From Methanobacterium sp. (lineage in GTDB: Archaea > Methanobacteriota > Methanobacteria > Methanobacteriales > Methanobacteriaceae), in assembly GCA_003166335.1 (NCBI GenBank), contig PMWA01000015.1, forward strand, positions 1-14,219: 14,219 nucleotides of DNA, read 5' to 3'. This document shows, one piece after another, positions 1 through 12,449 of the stretch (position 1 is its first letter; the number at the start of each line of letters is the position of its first letter). A program made the position numbers and the translations under genes. Below the pieces are notes generated by a model. That model was given only the letters and a program-made list of their open reading frames with translations, did not search any database and was not told the origin of the DNA.

Positions 1-313
1 ATTCTGGGATGAGTTCGACCAGAATACTTCTGCCTTCATTATAGCAGTAATTTATGTTTTTTCCTAAAAGATTTGCTTATGATTAATGAAATAGAGCAGA
101 GACATAGTCTATGAAGATGCTCTCGGAGAAGTTTGAAATCAAACGTAAATTTAATTTACAGGGAGTAATCGCCTGTGAATCATTTATTTAAATAATATTT
201 TACTTTAAAATTTAAATTTACGATACATTTAGCTTGAAATTAGAAAATTTTTTTAACCTTCAAAATAGATAATTAATATTAAAGAAAACTATCGCAGTGG
301 AGGATTTATTTTT

Positions 314-586
314 ATGGATGATGAGTATAATAATGATGAATATAGGGATGATGATTATACGGATGAACGTGAACACCGTAGAAGAAGACGCCAAAGATAT
401 CATCGATACCGGAGAGGATTTATATTTTGGCGAGTTTTGATAATTATCATCCTAATCGTATTCCTACTCTCATTTGTATTTGGAATAAATACCGGAAGAC
501 TTTTTTTGCCTGCAATAATTATTATTTTAATATTATCACTACTTTTCAGATTGATAATTTTCCGTCCACGCAGAAGATATCAATAA
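314..586 (+). CDS. Small hypothetical membrane protein (acidic N-terminus, Arg-rich stretch, two predicted TM helices)
   Basis: 90-aa ORF with GGAGG SD at 299-303. Two hydrophobic runs (FIFWRVLIIIILIVFLLSFVFGI; LFLPAIIIILILSLLFRLIIF) are flanked by basic residues. A T-tract follows at about 609-617. Confidence 0.8.
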   Translation: MDDEYNNDEYRDDDYTDEREHRRRRRQRYHRYRRGFIFWRVLIIIILIVFLLSFVFGINTGRLFLPAIIIILILSLLFRLIIFRPRRRYQ

Positions 587-834
587 TAAAAATTATTATA
601 TTTAAAAATTTTTTTTTATTCATTTCTACTCTTTTAGGATTATAGGGATAATTCAATGGACTGAGTTAAAACTACTGGAGAAGCTTGCGGAATAATTGTG
701 AATTAAGCAAATAGTTAATAATATTTTAATCTAAAAAAAAAAATAGGATTCATTCAGGATATATTAAAAAAAAGTTACTTATTTAATTATCATACTTTCA
801 TGGATGTTATAATGTTATGAACTGGTAACTTAAT

Positions 835-842
835 AAAAAAAA
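835..842 (-). terminator. Oligo-U terminator of putative sRNA copy 1
   Basis: A8 on the plus strand (U8 in the transcript) abuts the 3' arm of the terminal stem. Confidence 0.5.
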
Positions 843-954
843 GTAATAGGGTGTTAAAAAATTTTTTAAGACCTTAAGAATATTATTTTCGTTTTTTAGA
901 GGCGGTAAAAAACTTATCAATATAAATTACTGGTCTTAATACACCCTATTACAT
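835..954 (-). ncRNA. Putative structured small RNA, copy 1 (unassigned family)
   Basis: 12-bp perfect end-to-end stem (843-854/941-952), 8-bp stem (866-873/932-939) and 8-bp inner hairpin (891-898/906-913) whose minus-strand loop is CCGCCUC. Upstream TTTATATA at 979-972 and U8 tract at 842-835 directly after the stem. No ORF. A related copy lies at 12293-12420. Ends are estimated. Confidence 0.6.
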
Positions 955-971
955 CATATTATCCGAGGTTA

Positions 972-985
972 TATATAAAGTTTAT
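972..985 (-). promoter_or_regulatory. Archaeal BRE/TATA promoter for putative sRNA copy 1
   Basis: Minus strand reads ATAAAC-TTTATATA, centred about 24 nt upstream of the 5' arm of the stem. Confidence 0.6.
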
Positions 986-1171
986 TGAAAGCTTTGAAGA
1001 ATTTATTAATCATACTATAACTTAAAAAACTACTAACAAGTAAATTTTTCGTATTATTCCTATTCCATTGAAAAATTAGAGTAAGTATTCAAATTTTTTA
1101 AATATTCCTAATATAATAATATAAAATTAAGTTTAGTTTAAACGATGAACAAAAAATTCTATAAAATCTAT

Positions 1172-2773
1172 TTATAAACGAGATGCCTTTTCATTATCTT
1201 CCCTATAAAAATATAATAAGAATATTGAAAGCATAAACACGTTATAACCTGCCCAAAAAATTATAGAAGGATAAGTAATAATATTCTCACCTTTAATCAG
1301 TCGTGATAGACCAATAGAAATAGAAACTACTAAAATGATGATTAAGAAGATATGCGGAAATACTTCTTTAAAAGAAATTTTATTTACCTTTTTTTTAGGA
1401 GTTACCTTGAATTTTAACTTTTTATTAAACAAACCATAACTGAAAGCCCGAATATAAACTGGGAAAAGGCTGAGAAACAAAGATTGTGAAAGTAAAAGTT
1501 CTTTAAGTGGATATCCTCTTTCACCTCTACTAGTTAAAGTTTGAGTGAGAACCATTACTAAAAAAACATAAAGAGGAACGTTTAAAAAACTTAAAAAAAC
1601 AGGTTTTAAGTTAAATAACAATACAGCTACTGGATACATGAGCCATACAAAAGTTGCCAACCCAATAAAATACCAGGTCCCAATCAAAACAATATACTCC
1701 CACCACTGTACAGACTTTAAACTTTTCGGTTCACTAAATAATTTACCTAACACTTTCTTAGTATTCTGAAAAGTTCCATAAGACCACCTCATCTGCTGAC
1801 CATAATAAGCTGATAAAGACGGCGGGGGCAATCCTACAGCATAAACCTTATCAATATAAATAGATTTATAACCATAAGTATGGAAAATGAAAGAAGTCGC
1901 TATATCTTCAGTTATACACTCTTCATCCATTCCACCGATTTCATTGAGATCATCTAACTTTATAAGAACATTAGTTCCGCAAATATAGGATGATCCATTA
2001 ACACATAATCCACGGCAGATATGCTTATAAAAAACATGCTGCTGAAAAGAATAAGCCAAAGCCAACCGATCCTTACTGGGTATTTCAAAATATTGAGGTG
2101 TCTGAATAAAAGTTAAAGATGAATCATTCTCCATAATTGGTATCAAATCCTGGAAAACTGACTTTTTAAGCCTGTGATCCGAATCCAAAATCAATACATA
2201 CTTAAAATCGTCATTCAAATTTTTAATAGTATCATTAATAGACCCCGCCTTAAAACCCCTAAGAGTATCCCGATACATATAATTAATATCAAGACTATTA
2301 CATATTTCAGCCGTCTCCCGCTTGATATCAGTATCAGTGGAGCTGTCCATTAAAATAACCTGGAAATTATCATAATCAACATTTTTAGCCTTTAAAATAG
2401 TTTGCTTAACCATATCTGGCTCTTCATTGAGAGTGGGAATTATAATAGCTACAGATGGTGCTTTACCAATTAATTTAAACTTCTCACCCAGGAATTGTTT
2501 ACTATACAAGGTTAAAGACTTTAAAAGATGATCCAAATAACCCACACAATGCAATCCACTATAAACAAAAGAAAATAATAAAATAATAGAAACACCTTTA
2601 TCTAGCAAGGAAAGTCCACCATTATTAATTAACGGTAAAATATTCCACAGAATAAACAACAGGATACCTAAAAGTAACATCAAAGAAAAAAAAGATATCA
2701 AAGATGAATTTAAATTATCTTTAAACAAACCAAAAAAATTAGCAGCATATTTACCGTAAAAAAAAGATTTCAT
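1172..2773 (-). CDS. Processive family 2 glycosyltransferase, cellulose synthase (BcsA/CelA)-like, membrane-bound
   Basis: 533 aa with N-terminal TM helices, FKAG, DxD (LDSDH), QTPQ, TED, QxxRW (QQMRW), the FxVTxK gating-loop motif (FKVTPK) and C-terminal TM helices. It ends just after the last TM with no PilZ domain. Confidence 0.9.
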   Translation of the reverse strand: MKSFFYGKYAANFFGLFKDNLNSSLISFFSLMLLLGILLFILWNILPLINNGGLSLLDKGVSIILLFSFVYSGLHCVGYLDHLLKSLTLYSKQFLGEKFKLIGKAPSVAIIIPTLNEEPDMVKQTILKAKNVDYDNFQVILMDSSTDTDIKRETAEICNSLDINYMYRDTLRGFKAGSINDTIKNLNDDFKYVLILDSDHRLKKSVFQDLIPIMENDSSLTFIQTPQYFEIPSKDRLALAYSFQQHVFYKHICRGLCVNGSSYICGTNVLIKLDDLNEIGGMDEECITEDIATSFIFHTYGYKSIYIDKVYAVGLPPPSLSAYYGQQMRWSYGTFQNTKKVLGKLFSEPKSLKSVQWWEYIVLIGTWYFIGLATFVWLMYPVAVLLFNLKPVFLSFLNVPLYVFLVMVLTQTLTSRGERGYPLKELLLSQSLFLSLFPVYIRAFSYGLFNKKLKFKVTPKKKVNKISFKEVFPHIFLIIILVVSISIGLSRLIKGENIITYPSIIFWAGYNVFMLSIFLLYFYREDNEKASRL

Positions 2774-2930
2774 AATGAATATTAATTTATATTTAAGTGA
2801 AATAAACTCTTTCCCATTTAAAAAAAAATTAGTTATAAAACTCTGTTTTCCAAATAAATAGTCTTAGGGAATTTATAGGTTCAATTATAAAATAAATCTT
2901 TTAAAAATACCATTAATTTTTGATAAAGTT

Positions 2931-3074
2931 TTATCTAGATTTTTTTTGCAAGCGGTTTCTGAACCTAACTAACAATAGTATTATTACAGTAATTACAATG
3001 ATAAGGATAATTCCCCATATCACTAAGGCTGCAGCACCAAATAATCCATTAACTATGCTTTGAAGTATACCCAT
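2931..3074 (-). CDS. Small single-pass membrane protein, 47 aa (absent from ORF track)
   Basis: Hand translation: MGILQSIVNGLFGAAALVIWGIILIIVITVIILLLVRFRNRLQKKSR*. Clean ATG-TAA, long hydrophobic helix and basic C-terminal tail. No SD, so possibly leaderless. Confidence 0.7.
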   Translation of the reverse strand: MGILQSIVNGLFGAAALVIWGIILIIVITVIILLLVRFRNRLQKKSR

Positions 3075-5159: not shown

Positions 5160-5729
5160 ATGATTGATGAAACTGAACGTAAAATTTTAGATGCTGCTTT
5201 AAAACTATTCGCTAAAAAAGGATACACTGACGCTACCGCTATAGCTATAGCGGATAAAGCAGGTTTTAATGAAAAAACTATATTCCGTAAATTTAAAACC
5301 AAAAAAAATCTATATAACCAAGTTTTAAAATTGAATGCTGAGAAGTTTATGCAAGAACTTAGTGAATTTGTATTTGTTGATAAAAAATTTGATACAACCA
5401 CCGACTTTTTAGAGCATTACATCAAAAATGCTACTAAAGTATATTGGGATAATTTCGAATTTTTTAATTTATCCATCAATGCACCAAATGAAAAACTTGA
5501 ACCTACTATGGAGAATACTACTAATTTTGTAGGTGAATATTTAGAAAAAAATATTCCCAATCAAAAAATAGATTACAGAATATTCGGCATCACCATTCAT
5601 GCATTTATATACGCTATAAATGTTGAGAGATTTCAAGGACGCACCTACATTAACTATGATGATGCTATAGAAAAATTCATAAGCAACACTATCCACTGCA
5701 TATCAAACATCCCCTCGATAGACCCTTAA
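5160..5729 (+). CDS. TetR/AcrR family transcriptional regulator (1 of 4)
   Basis: N-terminal TetR HTH: ILDAALKLFAKKGY...IADKAGFNEKTIFRKFKTKKNLY. Confidence 0.93.
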   Translation: MIDETERKILDAALKLFAKKGYTDATAIAIADKAGFNEKTIFRKFKTKKNLYNQVLKLNAEKFMQELSEFVFVDKKFDTTTDFLEHYIKNATKVYWDNFEFFNLSINAPNEKLEPTMENTTNFVGEYLEKNIPNQKIDYRIFGITIHAFIYAINVERFQGRTYINYDDAIEKFISNTIHCISNIPSIDP

Positions 5730-5799
5730 AAAAAAATATTAAAGCTGAAAATAAAAAAAATGGATTATTTTAATTAAGTTTGGTAAATAGGTTAATATT

Positions 5800-6357
5800 A
5801 TGGCTGATAAAACGGAGCAGAAAATTTTAGATTCTTCTTTAAAACTATTCGCTAAAAAAGGCTATGATGCATCCACTACCATAGCTTTAGCCGAGGAATC
5901 GGGTTATACGGAGATGACGTTGTTCAGGATATTTAAAACTAAAAAAAATCTTTTTGATCAAGTCATGATTCGCGGTATAACAAAGATGCAAGAAGATGCC
6001 CATAAACTGTTATTTATAGATAAAAAATATGAAAACCCCCGTGATTTCTTAGAAACTTATCTCATAAATATTCTGAAATTTGCTCAGGATAATTTTGAAA
6101 TCTTTCATTTAACAATCATTGAAGATAGCTCAATGGGTGAATCTTTTCAAGCAGAAGTTAACGACGCTGTAGCTGCATATATTAAAAAAAATTTGCCAAA
6201 CCAAAAAATAGATTACAGAACCTATGGAATTACTATAACTACATTTGTATATGTACTCAATCTTGAAAAATATCACGGACGTACTGCTACTTTTGGTGAA
6301 CAAGAAGATAATATTATAGAAAACTTCATAGACCTCTTATATTGTATGATTAATTAA
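5800..6357 (+). CDS. TetR/AcrR family transcriptional regulator (2 of 4)
   Basis: HTH: ILDSSLKLFAKKGY...LAEESGYTEMTLFRIFKTKKNLF. Confidence 0.93.
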   Translation: MADKTEQKILDSSLKLFAKKGYDASTTIALAEESGYTEMTLFRIFKTKKNLFDQVMIRGITKMQEDAHKLLFIDKKYENPRDFLETYLINILKFAQDNFEIFHLTIIEDSSMGESFQAEVNDAVAAYIKKNLPNQKIDYRTYGITITTFVYVLNLEKYHGRTATFGEQEDNIIENFIDLLYCMIN

Positions 6358-6446
6358 ACATTATTAAATCTTGGTTTGCATTTCTCCTTATTATCTTCTC
6401 TTTTGAAATAAAAAAATTAATATTTATTGTGAAAAGTTGATTTATT

Positions 6447-7001
6447 ATGACTAATAAAACTGAGCAGATAATTTTAGATGCTGGTTTAAAAGAATTTGCA
6501 AAAAAAGGATACGATGCCACCACCACCCGAACTATAGCCAAAACGTCAGGTTTCACTGAGACTACTATATTCAGAAAATTTGGAAGTAAAAAAAATCTTT
6601 ATAATGAAATTATAGGTTATGGTGTGAAAAAACTTGAATATGCATATTATTCACTTCAAGTTTTAAATCAAAAATATAAGGATCCAACAGATTTTTTAGA
6701 AGCATTTGTTAAAACACTAGCCAAGATTAGATTAGATCATATTGAAATTTTTACTTTATTAGTCAATGAAGATAATTTACAATACGATTCTAAACTGGGT
6801 GAAGTTAATTATTTTATAAGTGAATTAATTAAAAATAATATCCCAGACATTAAAGTAGATCCTAACGTCCTGGGACTAACCATAGGTATATTTGTATACG
6901 CAATCGATGTAGATAAGTATCATGGTCGGATTAATGATATTACCTATGAAGAAACATTACAAAAATTCATAGGTAATCTTATGCTATGTTTTGAACAATA
7001 A
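6447..7001 (+). CDS. TetR/AcrR family transcriptional regulator (3 of 4)
   Basis: HTH: ILDAGLKEFAKKGY...IAKTSGFTETTIFRKFGSKKNLY. Confidence 0.93.
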   Translation: MTNKTEQIILDAGLKEFAKKGYDATTTRTIAKTSGFTETTIFRKFGSKKNLYNEIIGYGVKKLEYAYYSLQVLNQKYKDPTDFLEAFVKTLAKIRLDHIEIFTLLVNEDNLQYDSKLGEVNYFISELIKNNIPDIKVDPNVLGLTIGIFVYAIDVDKYHGRINDITYEETLQKFIGNLMLCFEQ

Positions 7002-7163
7002 AAACAATAAATTCATAATAATTTTTTTATTTCTACATATCAAACTTTTTTTTAAATAAATCGAAATAAATTAGAGTTTACCAATAACTCTTCTAAAATT
7101 TAGTAATTGTCGATTAATATTTTATTAATCATTTTTTGGTATAAGTGAATTTTTTTAGTTAAC

Positions 7164-7190
7164 TTTATATAGGGTGCGTGAAGACATACC
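7164..7190 (+). promoter_or_regulatory. TATA box plus candidate operator upstream of TetR 4
   Basis: TTTATATA at 7164-7171 is followed by the imperfect palindrome GGTGCGT-GAAG-ACATACC (7173-7190). Its core GTGAAGACAT recurs at 7914-7923. Confidence 0.55.
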
Positions 7191-7203
7191 ATTAGAGATT
7201 GTT

Positions 7204-7773
7204 ATGATTGATGAGACTGAACGTAAATTATTAGATGCTGCATTAAAAATATTCTCTAAAAAAGGATATACTGACGCTACAACTATAGCTATAGCGGATG
7301 AAGCAGGTTTTAATGAGAAAACTTTGTTTCGTAAATTTAAAACTAAAAAAAATCTTTATGACCAAGTTTTATCACTGAATGCAGAGAAGTATAAAAAAGA
7401 GCTTTATGAATACTTATTTGTCGATCGAAAATTTGATACACCCCAAGACTTTTTAGAGCATTATATCAAAAATTCAGCCAAAGTAAATTGGAATAATTTC
7501 GAATATGTTAATTTATCTCTACAAAAATCAAAGGGAATAATCGAACCGGTTATGAAAGACAATGTTGACTTTACAAGTGAATATTTCGAAAAAAATATCC
7601 CCCATCAAGAAATTGATCACAAAACATTAGGCATCTCCATACACGCATTCATATACGCTTTAAATACTGAGAGATTTCAAGGAAGCAACTACATTAATTA
7701 TGAGGAAACCCTAGAGAAATTCATTAATAACAACATCCAAATCATAAACACCCCTAATATGGAAGTTAAATAA
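7204..7773 (+). CDS. TetR/AcrR family transcriptional regulator (4 of 4); start revised to ATG 7204
   Basis: MIDETERKLLDAALKIFSKKGY aligns from residue 1 with TetR 1 (MIDETERKILDAALKLFAKKGY). The GTG at 7174 lies 3 nt after the TATA box and is unlikely to be transcribed. Confidence 0.92.
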   Translation: MIDETERKLLDAALKIFSKKGYTDATTIAIADEAGFNEKTLFRKFKTKKNLYDQVLSLNAEKYKKELYEYLFVDRKFDTPQDFLEHYIKNSAKVNWNNFEYVNLSLQKSKGIIEPVMKDNVDFTSEYFEKNIPHQEIDHKTLGISIHAFIYALNTERFQGSNYINYEETLEKFINNNIQIINTPNMEVK

Positions 7774-7982: not shown

Positions 7983-9998
7983 ATGATTACATCTAATTAT
8001 AGTAAAAGATTAGGTTTCCTGATATTTGGCCTGGCTTTTACTTTGGTGATGTGTGGTGCTGCATTTGCAGCCCCAACGAATTCTACGCACGTTAATTTGA
8101 ATCAGAGCGTAAACCATACAACAAACCAATTAAATACAACTACAAACACAAAATTACCGGATCCGCAGGTTTATAATGGTCACACATATGAAGGTACTTA
8201 CAATACAATCGCTGATGCTATTAATGCTGCAAAAAGCGGGGACACCATATGGCTTGCAAGTGGTACAACTTTTGATGAACACGGCTTAACCGTTAGTAAA
8301 AATTTGGATTTCAATGTATTTAACAATGGCACAGCTACTATAAACGCCCAAGGTAAAGGGCAAGTATTCTTCATAGTGGGTAGTGTAACTGTCGAACTAG
8401 AGAATTTAATATTAGAAAATGGTAAGGCAACTGATGGTGGAGCGATCGGTAATGTTGGTGTTTTGACGGTAAAAGACTGCACTTTCAAAGATAACACTGC
8501 AACTAGTGATGGTGGTGCTATCAGTAATGATGGTGTTTTGACTGTTAATAAAAGCACTTTCACGGGTAACACTGCAACAGGTGCTAATGGTGATGGTGGT
8601 GCTATCTATAATCAACCGATGGGTTTCACTCTGATCGGTAGTACTTTCACAGGTAACAGTGCCAATTATGAGGGTGGTGCTGTCTACAATGATGGTGGTG
8701 CTTTGAATCAACCCGTGAAAATATCAGGCAACACTTTCACCGGTAACAAAGCATTCTACGGTGGTGCTATCTACAATGACTATGATGCTATTATGACTGT
8801 AACCGACAGTAACTTCAAAGATAATACTCATGGTGGAGTAGGTGGTGCTATCTTCAATAATGGAATTACTTTGAATGTAAAGGGCAGCAATTTCACGGGT
8901 AACCAAGCAAATTATGGTGCTGGTGCTATCTACAATAGTGATTTCAGTGCTTTAACTGTAACCAGCAGCAATTTCACCGGTAACACTGCTGGTGGAGGTG
9001 GAGGTGCCATCATGAATAATGGTAACTTAACTTTAAGCAGCAGCACATTAATAAGTAACACTATAACCGGTTCTAATGGTGAGGGTGGCGCTATCTTCAA
9101 TGTAGGTAATGCTGCAGTACATTTCAATCGAATTGTAGATAACTCTGCAAGTCAAGGTAATGATATCTACAATTTCGATAGCGGAAAAATGAATGCAACA
9201 CTTAACTGGTGGGGATACAACAGCCAAATTAACATTGCTAATCAAATAGACAACAAAGGAGTTAGCTTAACCTATAATCCCTGGATTGTATTATCCATAC
9301 AAGCCAATCCAGTTAATGCAATTGTAGGGGGACATCCCATTATAAACGCTGCCCTACTATTTGCTAGTAATAGTGAATATTATCCAGCTACCGGTATAGT
9401 ACCTTACACAGGATCAGCGAATTTTAAAACCACTAAGGGAACTATTAAAAACAGTAATTTCTCTAATGGAGTATCTGGATCTACTTTAACTGATTTGACC
9501 ACAGCTGAAGTGGTTACCGTCTTTACAACAGTGGACCATCAAACCGTATCCAAAAAAGTTTATGTTACTGGTGCAACCATCAGTCAATTGATAAGTTCAG
9601 CGGCGTATGTTAAAAACTACTACGAGTTACATGGTGTTTTACCTTCCCATATAACCATCTTTGGTCAAACTATAACCATGCCTCAATTCCTAACATTACT
9701 GGTTACTGGAACATTAAACATTAAAAATGGTAATTTAAACCCATTACCAGTACTCACAGTTAACCCGGCATCTAATCCATCCGGAAACTTTACTACAGGT
9801 AAAATTTACAAATCAGAGTACTTATCCATTGCTCAGACTATTAAAAACTATATCTCGGCTAATGGAAAAGTACCTAACAATGCCACTACCAGTCTGGGTA
9901 CTATACCCTTCAGTAAACTAGTGTACAGTTACAGTAAAATCATAAACTACTACGGTGTAAACAAAGAATTACCTAACTACGTTAGCGCAGCAACATAA
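7983..9998 (+). CDS. Secreted adhesin-like surface protein: right-handed beta-helix (GGAIxN repeats) with C-terminal pseudomurein-binding-type repeats
   Basis: Signal peptide (KRLGFLIFGLAFTLVMCGAAFA), N/T-rich linker, repeated GGA(I/V)xN...F(T/K)(G/D)N units, NWWG motif, and C-terminal repeats (VKNYYELHGVLPSHITI; IKNYISANGKVPNNAT; IINYYGVNKELPNYV) typical of Methanobacteriales PMBR proteins. GGGGAG SD upstream and T-tract downstream. Confidence 0.88.
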   Translation: MITSNYSKRLGFLIFGLAFTLVMCGAAFAAPTNSTHVNLNQSVNHTTNQLNTTTNTKLPDPQVYNGHTYEGTYNTIADAINAAKSGDTIWLASGTTFDEHGLTVSKNLDFNVFNNGTATINAQGKGQVFFIVGSVTVELENLILENGKATDGGAIGNVGVLTVKDCTFKDNTATSDGGAISNDGVLTVNKSTFTGNTATGANGDGGAIYNQPMGFTLIGSTFTGNSANYEGGAVYNDGGALNQPVKISGNTFTGNKAFYGGAIYNDYDAIMTVTDSNFKDNTHGGVGGAIFNNGITLNVKGSNFTGNQANYGAGAIYNSDFSALTVTSSNFTGNTAGGGGGAIMNNGNLTLSSSTLISNTITGSNGEGGAIFNVGNAAVHFNRIVDNSASQGNDIYNFDSGKMNATLNWWGYNSQINIANQIDNKGVSLTYNPWIVLSIQANPVNAIVGGHPIINAALLFASNSEYYPATGIVPYTGSANFKTTKGTIKNSNFSNGVSGSTLTDLTTAEVVTVFTTVDHQTVSKKVYVTGATISQLISSAAYVKNYYELHGVLPSHITIFGQTITMPQFLTLLVTGTLNIKNGNLNPLPVLTVNPASNPSGNFTTGKIYKSEYLSIAQTIKNYISANGKVPNNATTSLGTIPFSKLVYSYSKIINYYGVNKELPNYVSAAT

Positions 9999-11638: not shown

Positions 11639-12034
11639 TTAATCTTTGGGGCAATTTTTAATTATTTTCAGTTTATATTCTTTAATTTGGATGGGTTTAG
11701 ACCCGGATCTCTGATAATTCAATGTAATCAGGGTTTCTCCAGATTTAAGAGCTTTAAAAGTGAATACTTCATTACCACCTGAACCAATTAGAATAGGAGT
11801 ATTTGGTTGATAAGTTTGTTTAATTAACTTCAAATACTTGGAATTATAATTGGCTTTCCAATTATAACCTGTGGATGGATTGGTGGGTAATACTATAGTG
11901 AATTCCTGACCAACTTTAACATTCTTTATTATAGGCCCAGTAATAGTGGTTGAGGCTGCAAAAGAGCTTCCAACCATTAAACTTAGCATAAGTATGGTCG
12001 TTAATCCAAAAACTGTTGGCTTAAATATCTTCAT
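11639..12034 (-). CDS. Secreted chagasin-family (I42) cysteine peptidase inhibitor; start revised to 12034
   Basis: Signal peptide (MKIFK...SSFA), VKVGQEFTIVL, NPSTGYNW, GSGG and FTFKALKSG. GAGGTG SD at 12050-12045 precedes ATG 12034. Confidence 0.88.
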   Translation of the reverse strand: MKIFKPTVFGLTTILMLSLMVGSSFAASTTITGPIIKNVKVGQEFTIVLPTNPSTGYNWKANYNSKYLKLIKQTYQPNTPILIGSGGNEVFTFKALKSGETLITLNYQRSGSKPIQIKEYKLKIIKNCPKD

Positions 12035-12292
12035 AAAACTATCACACCTCATTCTGAAAAATAATTTTATGAAATCTTTCTATGTTCTATATAATTTAAT
12101 ATTTATAATTTATTACAAAAATTTGAACTTTGACTACATTCTTGAATGACTAATCATAAGTTCATTTGGTGAAAACTAAAAATTTGCAGATATAAGAAAT
12201 TTCTGTGGTTTAAGAATTTTAAAACCCTAATAGGTTATTTTTATGAAATTGCTTTATTTTATTAGTAGTTATAAAAAACCTAGAATGAAAAT

Positions 12293-12420
12293 AAAAAAAG
12301 TTGGGTGCATTATTGTTTTTTTTATTTTTTTTATATTTTTTTTATTATATTTTTTTTTGGAAGGCGTTAAAATTTTATAATTTAAATATATAAATTTAGT
12401 TTCTTAATGCACCCTAAATA
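12293..12420 (-). ncRNA. Putative structured small RNA, copy 2 (unassigned family)
   Basis: 10-bp perfect end-to-end stem (12303-12312/12405-12414). 14/15 identity to copy 1 over 12402-12416 vs 934-948. Central CGCCU motif (plus-strand AGGCG at 12362-12366), TTTATAAG at 12446-12439 and U7 tract at 12299-12293. Ends are estimated. Confidence 0.55.
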
Positions 12421-12438
12421 CTAATAATATAATTATTA

Positions 12439-12449
12439 CTTATAAAGTT
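12439..12449 (-). promoter_or_regulatory. Archaeal TATA promoter for putative sRNA copy 2
   Basis: Minus strand reads AAC-TTTATAAG. The TATA start is 32 nt from the GGGTG arm, against 33 nt in copy 1. Confidence 0.55.

Follow-up and report, generated by a model that had tools for sequence, protein, structure and literature searches.

In Methanosarcina mazei, which provides the closest described systems, loop 2 of sRNA154 masks the ribosome-binding site (RBS) of glnA2, and sRNA41 masks the RBSs of the ACDS operon within polycistronic mRNAs, according to the available part of one report (PMC5867862). In the accessible portions of the open-access full text and of a review, no small regulatory RNA was found described for pseudomurein-containing methanogens. 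Here, we analyzed a stretch of Methanobacterium sp. DNA, hereafter the window, which is a whole contig of 14,219 bases (C26) from a source genome (G000) of 2.49 Mb with 32% G+C. We take the host to be a pseudomurein-walled methanogen, because its genome encodes proteins with pseudomurein-binding repeats (PMBR). The element under study, copy 1, lies between two genes near the left end of the window and is predicted to encode a small RNA (sRNA) on the minus strand. The comparative evidence supports its assignment, with its relatives, to a new family within the archaeal intergenic sRNAs.

The initial annotation had described three perfect nested stems at this locus, and direct reading of the sequence confirmed them: an outer stem of 12 bp, a middle stem of 8 bp and an apical stem of 8 bp with a 7-nt loop (Table 1). 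The minimum free energy (MFE) fold of positions 835-985 consists of the same three stems whichever strand is folded, and both strands fold better than their shuffled counterparts, at -30.2 kcal/mol for the plus strand (z -3.28; 1 of 200 shuffles as good) and -30.7 kcal/mol for the minus strand (z -3.66; 0 of 200). The 16-bp palindrome that had been placed at the junction of the outer stems is present, but does not hold as a conserved feature. Its A6T6 is replaced in orthologs by A7T5, A5T7 or A6TTATTT, so that palindromy is not kept. It is best read as a chance junction of an A-run and a T-run. The flanking open reading frames (ORFs) are convergent, as had been stated: the plus-strand ORF, 314-586, encodes a small protein of membrane type, and the minus-strand ORF, 1172-2773, a GT2 glycosyltransferase by Pfam. 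The RNA is predicted to start near 947-952 and to end in the U-run from 842 to 835, giving a length of about 105-118 nt.

A repeat search revealed, and a motif scan confirmed, a second, diverged copy on the same strand (copy 2), and BLAST of the copy 1 element against its own genome gave no second copy. Among the 18 other genomes of the genus, BLAST recovered orthologs of copy 1 in five, at 89-98% identity, and three diverged copies (a, b and c) in a sixth genome, G014. A gapped pattern searched over 314 genomes of the host's taxonomic family found true members in the window's genus only, the other matches being coding sequence. A covariance model built from six orthologs (R1) was too narrow and missed copy 2 as well as the G014 copies. 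With a second model (R2), matches that were weak and yet clear homologs came to light in a second branch of the genus; a third (R3) contributed two further genomes of that genus, an additional copy in G011 and the copies of a second genus. Combining R2 and R3 gives 1-3 copies in at least 15 of the 19 genomes of the window's genus. One genome that is 95% complete (G009) gave no copy with R2 or R3, and three that are 64-81% complete (G002, G012 and G018) gave none by R2, R3 not having been run on these three. The second genus has one copy each in 5 of 26 genomes, and among 150 other sampled genomes of the host's family, no true match came from any further genus. A weak R2 match in a third genus (L218) was false, as it has neither AGGGUG nor a closing stem. 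A pattern scan of metagenomes returned 16 loci, including 6 true members, with L199 as the sole new variant; among the matches listed from a pattern scan of contigs, the one archaeal match (L074) was coding sequence. Neither the whole window nor seven loci of other members matched any Rfam 15 family in cmscan with permissive filters at E values up to 1, and the motif letters had only unrelated primer and linker matches in open-access full text. We sorted the resulting 28 copies by sequence into four subtypes, whose labels are our own (Table 1).

Five features are common to all copies and keep their order: a TATA-like octamer, a two-part helix that pairs the 5′ and 3′ ends of the RNA (28 of 28 copies), an AU-rich rod with imperfect pairing and variable length, a C-rich motif at or near the tip (CCGCCUC, CUGCCUC, CGCCUUC or CUGCCCUCC; 28 of 28 copies), and a run of 4-8 T whose start is no more than about 10 nt past the closing helix. 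The octamer starts 30-33 nt before AGGGUG in 18 of the 28 copies by regular expression, and the other 10 have TTTATAAG, TATATAAG, TATATATA or TTTATTTA at 30-32 nt when read by eye. The spacer between the octamer and AGGGUG is wholly different in sequence among subtypes and yet keeps its length, as expected if transcription from a promoter began near AGGGUG, and this spacing suggests that the octamer is an archaeal promoter. The shared spacing and the T-run thus lend support to the promoter and terminator previously proposed for copy 1, both of which are predicted elements. All 16 copies that were folded formed the closing stem (z -2.3 to -5.1), and the C-rich motif lay in the unpaired apical loop in 13 of these 16 MFE folds.

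Promoter and RNA together form an island of conservation within poorly conserved intergenic DNA: across six orthologous loci, the fraction of invariant columns is 0.67-0.93 between about 1059 and 823, compared with 0-0.3 in the flanks. A conserved block within this island contains a T6 run (about 1027-1032) and repeated words TATGAT, and is possibly a terminator of the GT2 gene or an upstream promoter element. The minus strand also carries ATGATGTAA (Met-Met-stop) at 953-961, in the interval that separates the TATA-like box from the stem. Subtype 1 shares this short sequence with G014 b and c; it is absent from subtype 2 and probably lies upstream of the start site.

Table 1. Coordinates of the element, its second copy and associated motifs, and loop sequences of the subtypes
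Feature	Position	Strand	Remarks
Predicted sRNA, copy 1 (subtype 1)	835..952	-	folds, orthologs, covariance-model matches, RNA-library contigs
TATA-box-like octamer of copy 1, TTTATATA	979 to 972	-	first base 32 nt upstream of the A of AGGGUG
Closing (outer) stem, 5′ arm, GUAAUAGGGUGU	941..952	-	plus-strand letters ACACCCTATTAC; AGGGUG core invariant in the family, starts at 947
Closing stem, 3′ arm, ACACCCUAUUAC	843..854	-	plus-strand letters GTAATAGGGTGT; sequence, ortholog comparison
Middle stem, 5′ arm, UUAAGACC	932..939	-	plus-strand letters GGTCTTAA; copy-by-copy comparison
Middle stem, 3′ arm, GGUCUUAA	866..873	-	plus-strand letters TTAAGACC; copy-by-copy comparison
Apical hairpin, GUUUUUUA-CCGCCUC-UAAAAAAC	891..913	-	plus-strand letters GTTTTTTA (891-898) and TAAAAAAC (906-913) around GAGGCGG (899-905); loop CCGCCUC (905 to 899), anti-Shine-Dalgarno-like
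U8 run	835..842	-	abuts the closing stem; predicted archaeal oligo-T terminator
Palindrome, TTAAAAAATTTTTTAA	854..869	none	in the RNA, 11-nt internal loop between outer and middle stems
Conserved block of about 50 nt	1005..1052	-	six orthologous loci; between the GT2 stop and the sRNA promoter
Copy 2 (subtype 2)	12289..12419	-	closing stem GGGUGCAUUA/UAAUGCACCC, 12414-12405 with 12312-12303
Copy 2, interior	12289..12419	-	A/U rod, loop region UUUUAACGCCUUCCAAAA, U7 at 12299 to 12293
TATA-like octamer of copy 2, TTTATAAG	12439..12446	-	starts 31 nt before AGGGUG, read by eye
Motif GGAGGCGGTA(A/T)AATTAA, loci in the own genome (L232, L233)	C20:4232+, C20:5892+, C28:12318+, C30:14278-, C95:10397+, C96:84-, C39:5166-	as marked	
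Subtype 1			copy 1 and orthologs, G014 b and c close; loop CCGCCUC
Subtype 2			copy 2 and orthologs; loop AACGCCUUCC
G014 a			resembles subtype 2 by promoter; loop CUGCCUC
Subtype 3			second branch of the genus; loop AACCGCCUCAAU
Subtype 4			second genus and second G011 copy; loop CUGCCCUCC

Substitutions within the stems bear on both the structure and the strand. In the six copy 1 orthologs, 97.6% of pair cells are standard, a share that drops to 36-56% if the 3′ partner is displaced by 1-3 columns; one pair is changed on both sides (C-G vs. U-A), and five one-sided cells, distributed over four pairs, are all G·U on the minus strand. In an alignment of 21 sequences, limited to the outer and apical helices that they have in common, two-sided changes were found in 4 of 14 pairs. 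The covariation score of this set was reached by 0 of 500 shuffles and exceeded the slid controls in 5 of 6 slides, figures that carry the tool’s own warning that related sequences may beat shuffles even without structure. In the closing stem, GGGUGU/ACACCC and GGGUGC/GCACCC differ on both sides, with a G·U in G013, and in the apical stem U-A is changed to G-C in five subtype 3 sequences and in MG199. The middle helix is not alignable across the family and was compared copy by copy. It takes the forms UUAAGACC/GGUCUUAA, the G·U wobble forms UUAAGAUC, UUGAGGCC and UUAAGGCC, AGACU/AGUCU, UAAGAUUU/AAAUCUUA, UUUAAGAAUA/UAUUCUUAAA, and AGUUUAAG/CUUAAACU vs. GGUUUAAG/CUUAAACC, with the compensating variants ACC/GGU, AUUU/AAAU and AAUA/UAUU.

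Seven independent one-sided stem changes were identified, four among the orthologs and the others in the subtype 2 copy of G013, in G069 and in G010. Read on the minus strand, every one of them is a G·U pair; read on the plus strand, each would be C·A. A palindrome selected at the DNA level or a plus-strand RNA would be expected to yield about half of each. The minus strand is therefore the RNA strand. A plus-strand RNA is rejected on this wobble direction and because that side has neither a T-run nor a TATA box. Because orthologs of copy 1 differ by 1-nt indels and no ORF of at least 50 aa is present within 587-1171, the element is considered non-coding. It thus shows the non-coding sequence and the structural constraint that characterize an archaeal intergenic sRNA.

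The gene neighborhoods differ among subtypes. Subtype 2 has a divergent HAD hydrolase gene upstream and, at 4 of 6 loci examined, a convergent ABM monooxygenase gene downstream, a position that excludes both a 5′ leader and a 3′ untranslated region (UTR). A chagasin-like gene follows subtype 2 on the same strand in G000 and G016 only, and subtypes 3 and 4 have other, unrelated neighbors. The earlier suggestion of a standalone RNA rather than a 5′ leader is consequently upheld by the strand, the promoter and T-run, the context of subtype 2, the conservation island and the non-coding character, and the region probably represents an independent minus-strand sRNA gene.

Metatranscriptomes provided a further view of the locus. 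Twenty runs, all labelled peat or permafrost, contain part of 300-3000, and Logan contigs of four of these, which give neither strand nor ends, were mapped onto 300-1600. In three of the four runs, each from a different study, short contigs cover copy 1 (769-929, 843-921 and 817-967); the run with the contig 843-921 also has a partly unlike contig at 834-872. These contigs are not joined to those of the GT2 gene, which begin at 1151 or 1204, and both 617-768 and 968-1150 lack coverage in all four runs. The pattern fits a separate transcript of copy 1 and constitutes weak evidence for it. Copy 1 is likely an independent sRNA gene of peat methanogens.

Candidate targets emerged from a search of the own genome for complements of the subtype 1 loop, which led to paralogous genes with the start region GGA(C/U)A(U/C)GGAGGCGGUA(A/U)AAUUAA(G/U). 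Their proteins are secreted, rich in Thr, Asn and sequons, and contain PMBR (PF09373), most of them with a transglutaminase-like core. At five G000 loci GGAGGCGGTAAAA stands at the gene start, a sixth (C96) has GGAGGCGGTATAA, and others have variants. The underlying 17-mer, GGAGGCGGTA(A/T)AATTAA, occurs exactly in 67 of 151 sampled genomes of the host’s family and in 11 of 27 genera, with 1-7 copies each, and its reversed control gave one match; allowing up to two mismatches, it is present in all 19 genomes of the window’s genus. Because would-be synonymous positions are frozen, the motif is regarded as an RNA- or DNA-level element, regardless of the sRNA. In every copy, an ATT located 7-8 nt after GGAGG is in frame with the long ORF, even at C95, where the motif falls in another frame. 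Canonical in-frame starts occur upstream at C28 (TTG), C30 (ATG), C95 (ATG) and C20:4232 (ATG), and none at C20:5892 or C96, and AUU within the motif is a possible start codon. The subtype 1 RNA (5′-UUUUACCGCCUCU) and GGAGGCGGUAAAA can form 12 Watson-Crick pairs and one G·U, seven of the pairs coming from the loop. The duplex energy, -22.7 kcal/mol, has an empirical p of 0.002 when compared with 3000 randomly drawn 125-nt genome segments.

In two sister genomes, the same gene family has a start-site variant, GGGGGCGTTAAAA(A)TTAAG (C39:5166- in the own genome and G016:C1:1060404-), that can form 13 pairs with the subtype 2 loop, two of them G·U. A paralog-specific match between the subtype 2 loop (AACGCC) and the GGCGUUAAAA variant was considered and rejected as evidence of general weight, the variant being present in G000 and G016 only. 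The window itself encodes an adhesin-like surface protein of 671 aa (7983-9998), with Chlamydia-PMP-type repeats and C-terminal pseudomurein-binding repeats; the start region of its gene is without the 17-nt motif.

As a whole, the locus is best explained as a self-transcribed minus-strand hairpin RNA whose C-rich loop pairs with ribosome-binding regions, an account to which we give roughly even chances. Transcription would proceed from the TATA-box promoter about 30 nt upstream and end at the U-run after the closing stem, yielding an RNA of about 105-115 nt; the stem would join the two ends of the RNA and thereby protect it. The AU-rich rod would display the 7-nt loop CCGCCUC as a seed for GAGGCGG in the Shine-Dalgarno (SD) region of target mRNAs, and pairing might then spread into the weak A-U apical stem to the extent calculated above for GGAGGCGGUAAAA, so that the duplex would mask the RBS and likely the start codon. 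Action in trans is thus predicted. Among possible mechanisms, pairing of the C-rich loop with SD regions appears the most likely, a tentative assignment that we rate slightly below even. The loop motif resembles what we take to be the anti-SD sequence CCUCC of 16S rRNA. A 16S rRNA 3′ tail was not found in the own genome, where the rRNA may be unassembled, and five relatives gave only matches with two mismatches.

The best current candidates for targets are the paralogous secreted PMBR/transglutaminase-like genes, all with GGAGGCGGUA(A/U)AAUUAA at the start; their predicted regulation is a lead that we consider possible but doubtful. The position of subtype 1 next to a GT2 glycosyltransferase gene would fit a cell-envelope theme. 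On a similarly speculative footing, the lineage-specific paralogous sRNAs might form a cell-wall RNA regulon, in which their loops would mask GGAGGCGGUA(A/U)AAUUAA and wall remodelling would be tied to the neighboring glycosyltransferase locus.

Several observations weigh against this account or parts of it. The closing stem is largely invariant and is therefore uninformative on structure. Beyond subtype 1, support for the targets is weak, with a duplex p value of 0.05 in subtypes 3 and 4 and of 0.10 to 0.25 in subtype 2; a seeded genome-wide scan ranked the candidate start sites 7th and 19th of 405 seeds, with unrelated windows scoring equally well or better, and no single target stands out. 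The 17-nt motif occurs in 11 genera, compared with two for the RNA, and because it is so much more widespread, its conservation must be independent of this RNA. The GGCGUUAAAA match holds in 2 of 7 subtype 2 genomes. Subtype 1 is invariably found 3′ of GT2, and this extends to the GT2 duplicates of G014. The element contigs are of low depth (k-mer depth 3-8); one extends 66 nt beyond the U8 run, and another, 817-967, exceeds both predicted ends, starting 15 nt upstream of the predicted start and only 5 nt past the TATA box. These contigs could represent DNA carry-over or read-through.

Foremost among the alternatives is a self-transcribed structured RNA without a base-pairing role, namely a protein-binding or decoy RNA that would use the closing stem (AGGGUGCA...UGCACCCU, UUAAG...CUUAA) and the C-rich loop as recognition sites. 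The sequence of the closing stem is indeed conserved well beyond the needs of pairing, with AGGGUG/CACCC invariant in 21 of 21 sequences, the complementarity between loop and target is significant for subtype 1 only, and a U-rich tail and A-rich internal loops are typical of sites for Sm-like proteins. However, no partner gene accompanies the element, whose neighbors vary by subtype, and the sole motif preserved throughout the four subtypes is an unpaired, C-rich one, like known anti-RBS loops. We regard such an RNA as unlikely.

Less probable still is a 3′ element of the GT2 mRNA, in which the long hairpin and the U8 run would act as a terminator and 3′ stabilizer without a start site of their own. 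A same-strand GT2 gene immediately precedes all eight GT2-linked loci examined, which are the six subtype 1 orthologs and, behind GT2 paralogs, G014 b and c; for this reason subtype 1 may still serve GT2 as a terminator or 3′ element. A hairpin followed by a U-run is also terminator-like, and one RNA-library contig begins upstream of the predicted start. On the other hand, the architecture is unchanged in subtypes 2-4, which lack a same-strand gene upstream, the upstream gene of subtype 2 being divergent, and the TATA-like box is found at a fixed spacing in all subtypes. A separate T6 run lies between the GT2 stop and the promoter (about 1027-1032), oligo-T suffices for archaeal termination, and the element failed when assessed as a plain terminator. 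The initial annotation had named appearance only as read-through from the GT2 mRNA as a refuting outcome; in the four runs, none of the strandless contigs links GT2 to the element, and 968-1150 is uncovered throughout. At one of the GT2-linked loci (L057, G014:C1:11452-14571), the GT2 paralog before G014 copy c gave a tblastn match in three pieces and may be a broken gene; copy c itself keeps the stems and has a weaker T-run.

A cis-acting 5′ leader, such as a riboswitch or attenuator of the next minus-strand gene, is very improbable. It is suggested by copy 2, about 240 nt upstream of a same-strand gene for a chagasin-like inhibitor (11639-12052), and by subtype 3 copies about 200 nt upstream of a 145-aa ORF. 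Downstream of copy 1, however, the minus strand carries no gene, and the ORF that comes next (314-586) is on the plus strand; 4 of 6 subtype 2 loci lack the chagasin gene and have a convergent gene next; the downstream genes are unrelated between subtypes; and a strong T-run follows every copy. The family thus shows neither a consistent same-strand 5′ UTR position nor the conserved gene association of a riboswitch or leader.

A miniature inverted-repeat transposable element or its relic, with the closing stem as terminal inverted repeats, can practically be dismissed: the inverted termini of 12-18 bp, the AT-rich interior and the intergenic location of 1-3 copies per genome would suit it, but copies 1 and 2 have no target-site duplication, near-identical dispersed copies are absent (two diverged copies in the 2.49-Mb genome, with within-genome copies about 65% alike and syntenic orthologs 89-98%), the conserved promoter lies outside the inverted repeats, the G014 duplicates arrived with their GT2 genes, and the wobble direction indicates selection at the RNA level. 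Guide RNAs were also considered and rejected. H/ACA guides have ACA 3 nt from the 3′ end and a pseudouridylation pocket with a K-turn, and C/D guides have the boxes C (RUGAUGA) and D (CUGA). Here, the closing stem is followed by a U-run and not by ACA, no snoRNA-type match was obtained in Rfam, and the RNA contains no C or D boxes.

Elsewhere in the window, 5160-7773 contains four tandem paralogous genes for TetR-family regulators (5160-5729, 5800-6357, 6447-7001 and 7174-7773), spaced about 640-757 bp apart; over 300 nt, identity to the first copy is 62-85%.

The family offers a compact, testable example in which a promoter, a fold and a 7-nt seed are combined with a specific candidate target: the 17-nt motif, which is conserved exactly in 11 genera in front of genes for cell-wall enzymes. 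If the target link is true, it would represent a rare archaeal RNA regulon and provide a handle on the control of wall remodelling in major methane producers of peat and gut. Should the proposed target prove wrong, the family can still be used for RNA annotation of these genomes.

Compared with archaeal oligo-T terminators and structured 3′ UTR ends, the family is alike in having a U-run that abuts a stable helix, and copy 1 lies 3′ of a same-strand gene. It differs in its own TATA-like box at fixed spacing, in paralogs without an upstream same-strand gene, and in a conserved apical loop, which a terminator does not need. In bacteria, RsaE/RoxS and the UCCC-motif sRNAs of Staphylococcus use unpaired C-rich loops as seeds against the G-rich SD sequences of several mRNAs, and a terminator hairpin with a U-tail follows the C-rich loop. 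The present family shares with them an unpaired C-rich motif in a hairpin loop as the proposed SD seed, together with a predicted terminator hairpin and U-tail after it, and differs in belonging to another domain without homology, in having a single C-rich loop and in its archaeal promoter. The closest likeness is to sRNA154, sRNA41 and sRNA162 of M. mazei, which, in the available parts of the two reports (PMC5867862; PMC3510493), are likewise intergenic methanogen RNAs of about 100-150 nt whose stem-loops present an anti-RBS sequence, with masking of translation initiation as the proposed effect, one that for our family is a prediction on paper. The family is set apart from them by the lack of sequence or covariance-model similarity to any curated family, by its pseudomurein-containing lineage, by a single rod closed by its paired ends and by its 1-3 paralogs per genome, and its proposed targets are cell-wall proteins, whereas those of the M. 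mazei sRNAs belong to nitrogen or carbon metabolism.

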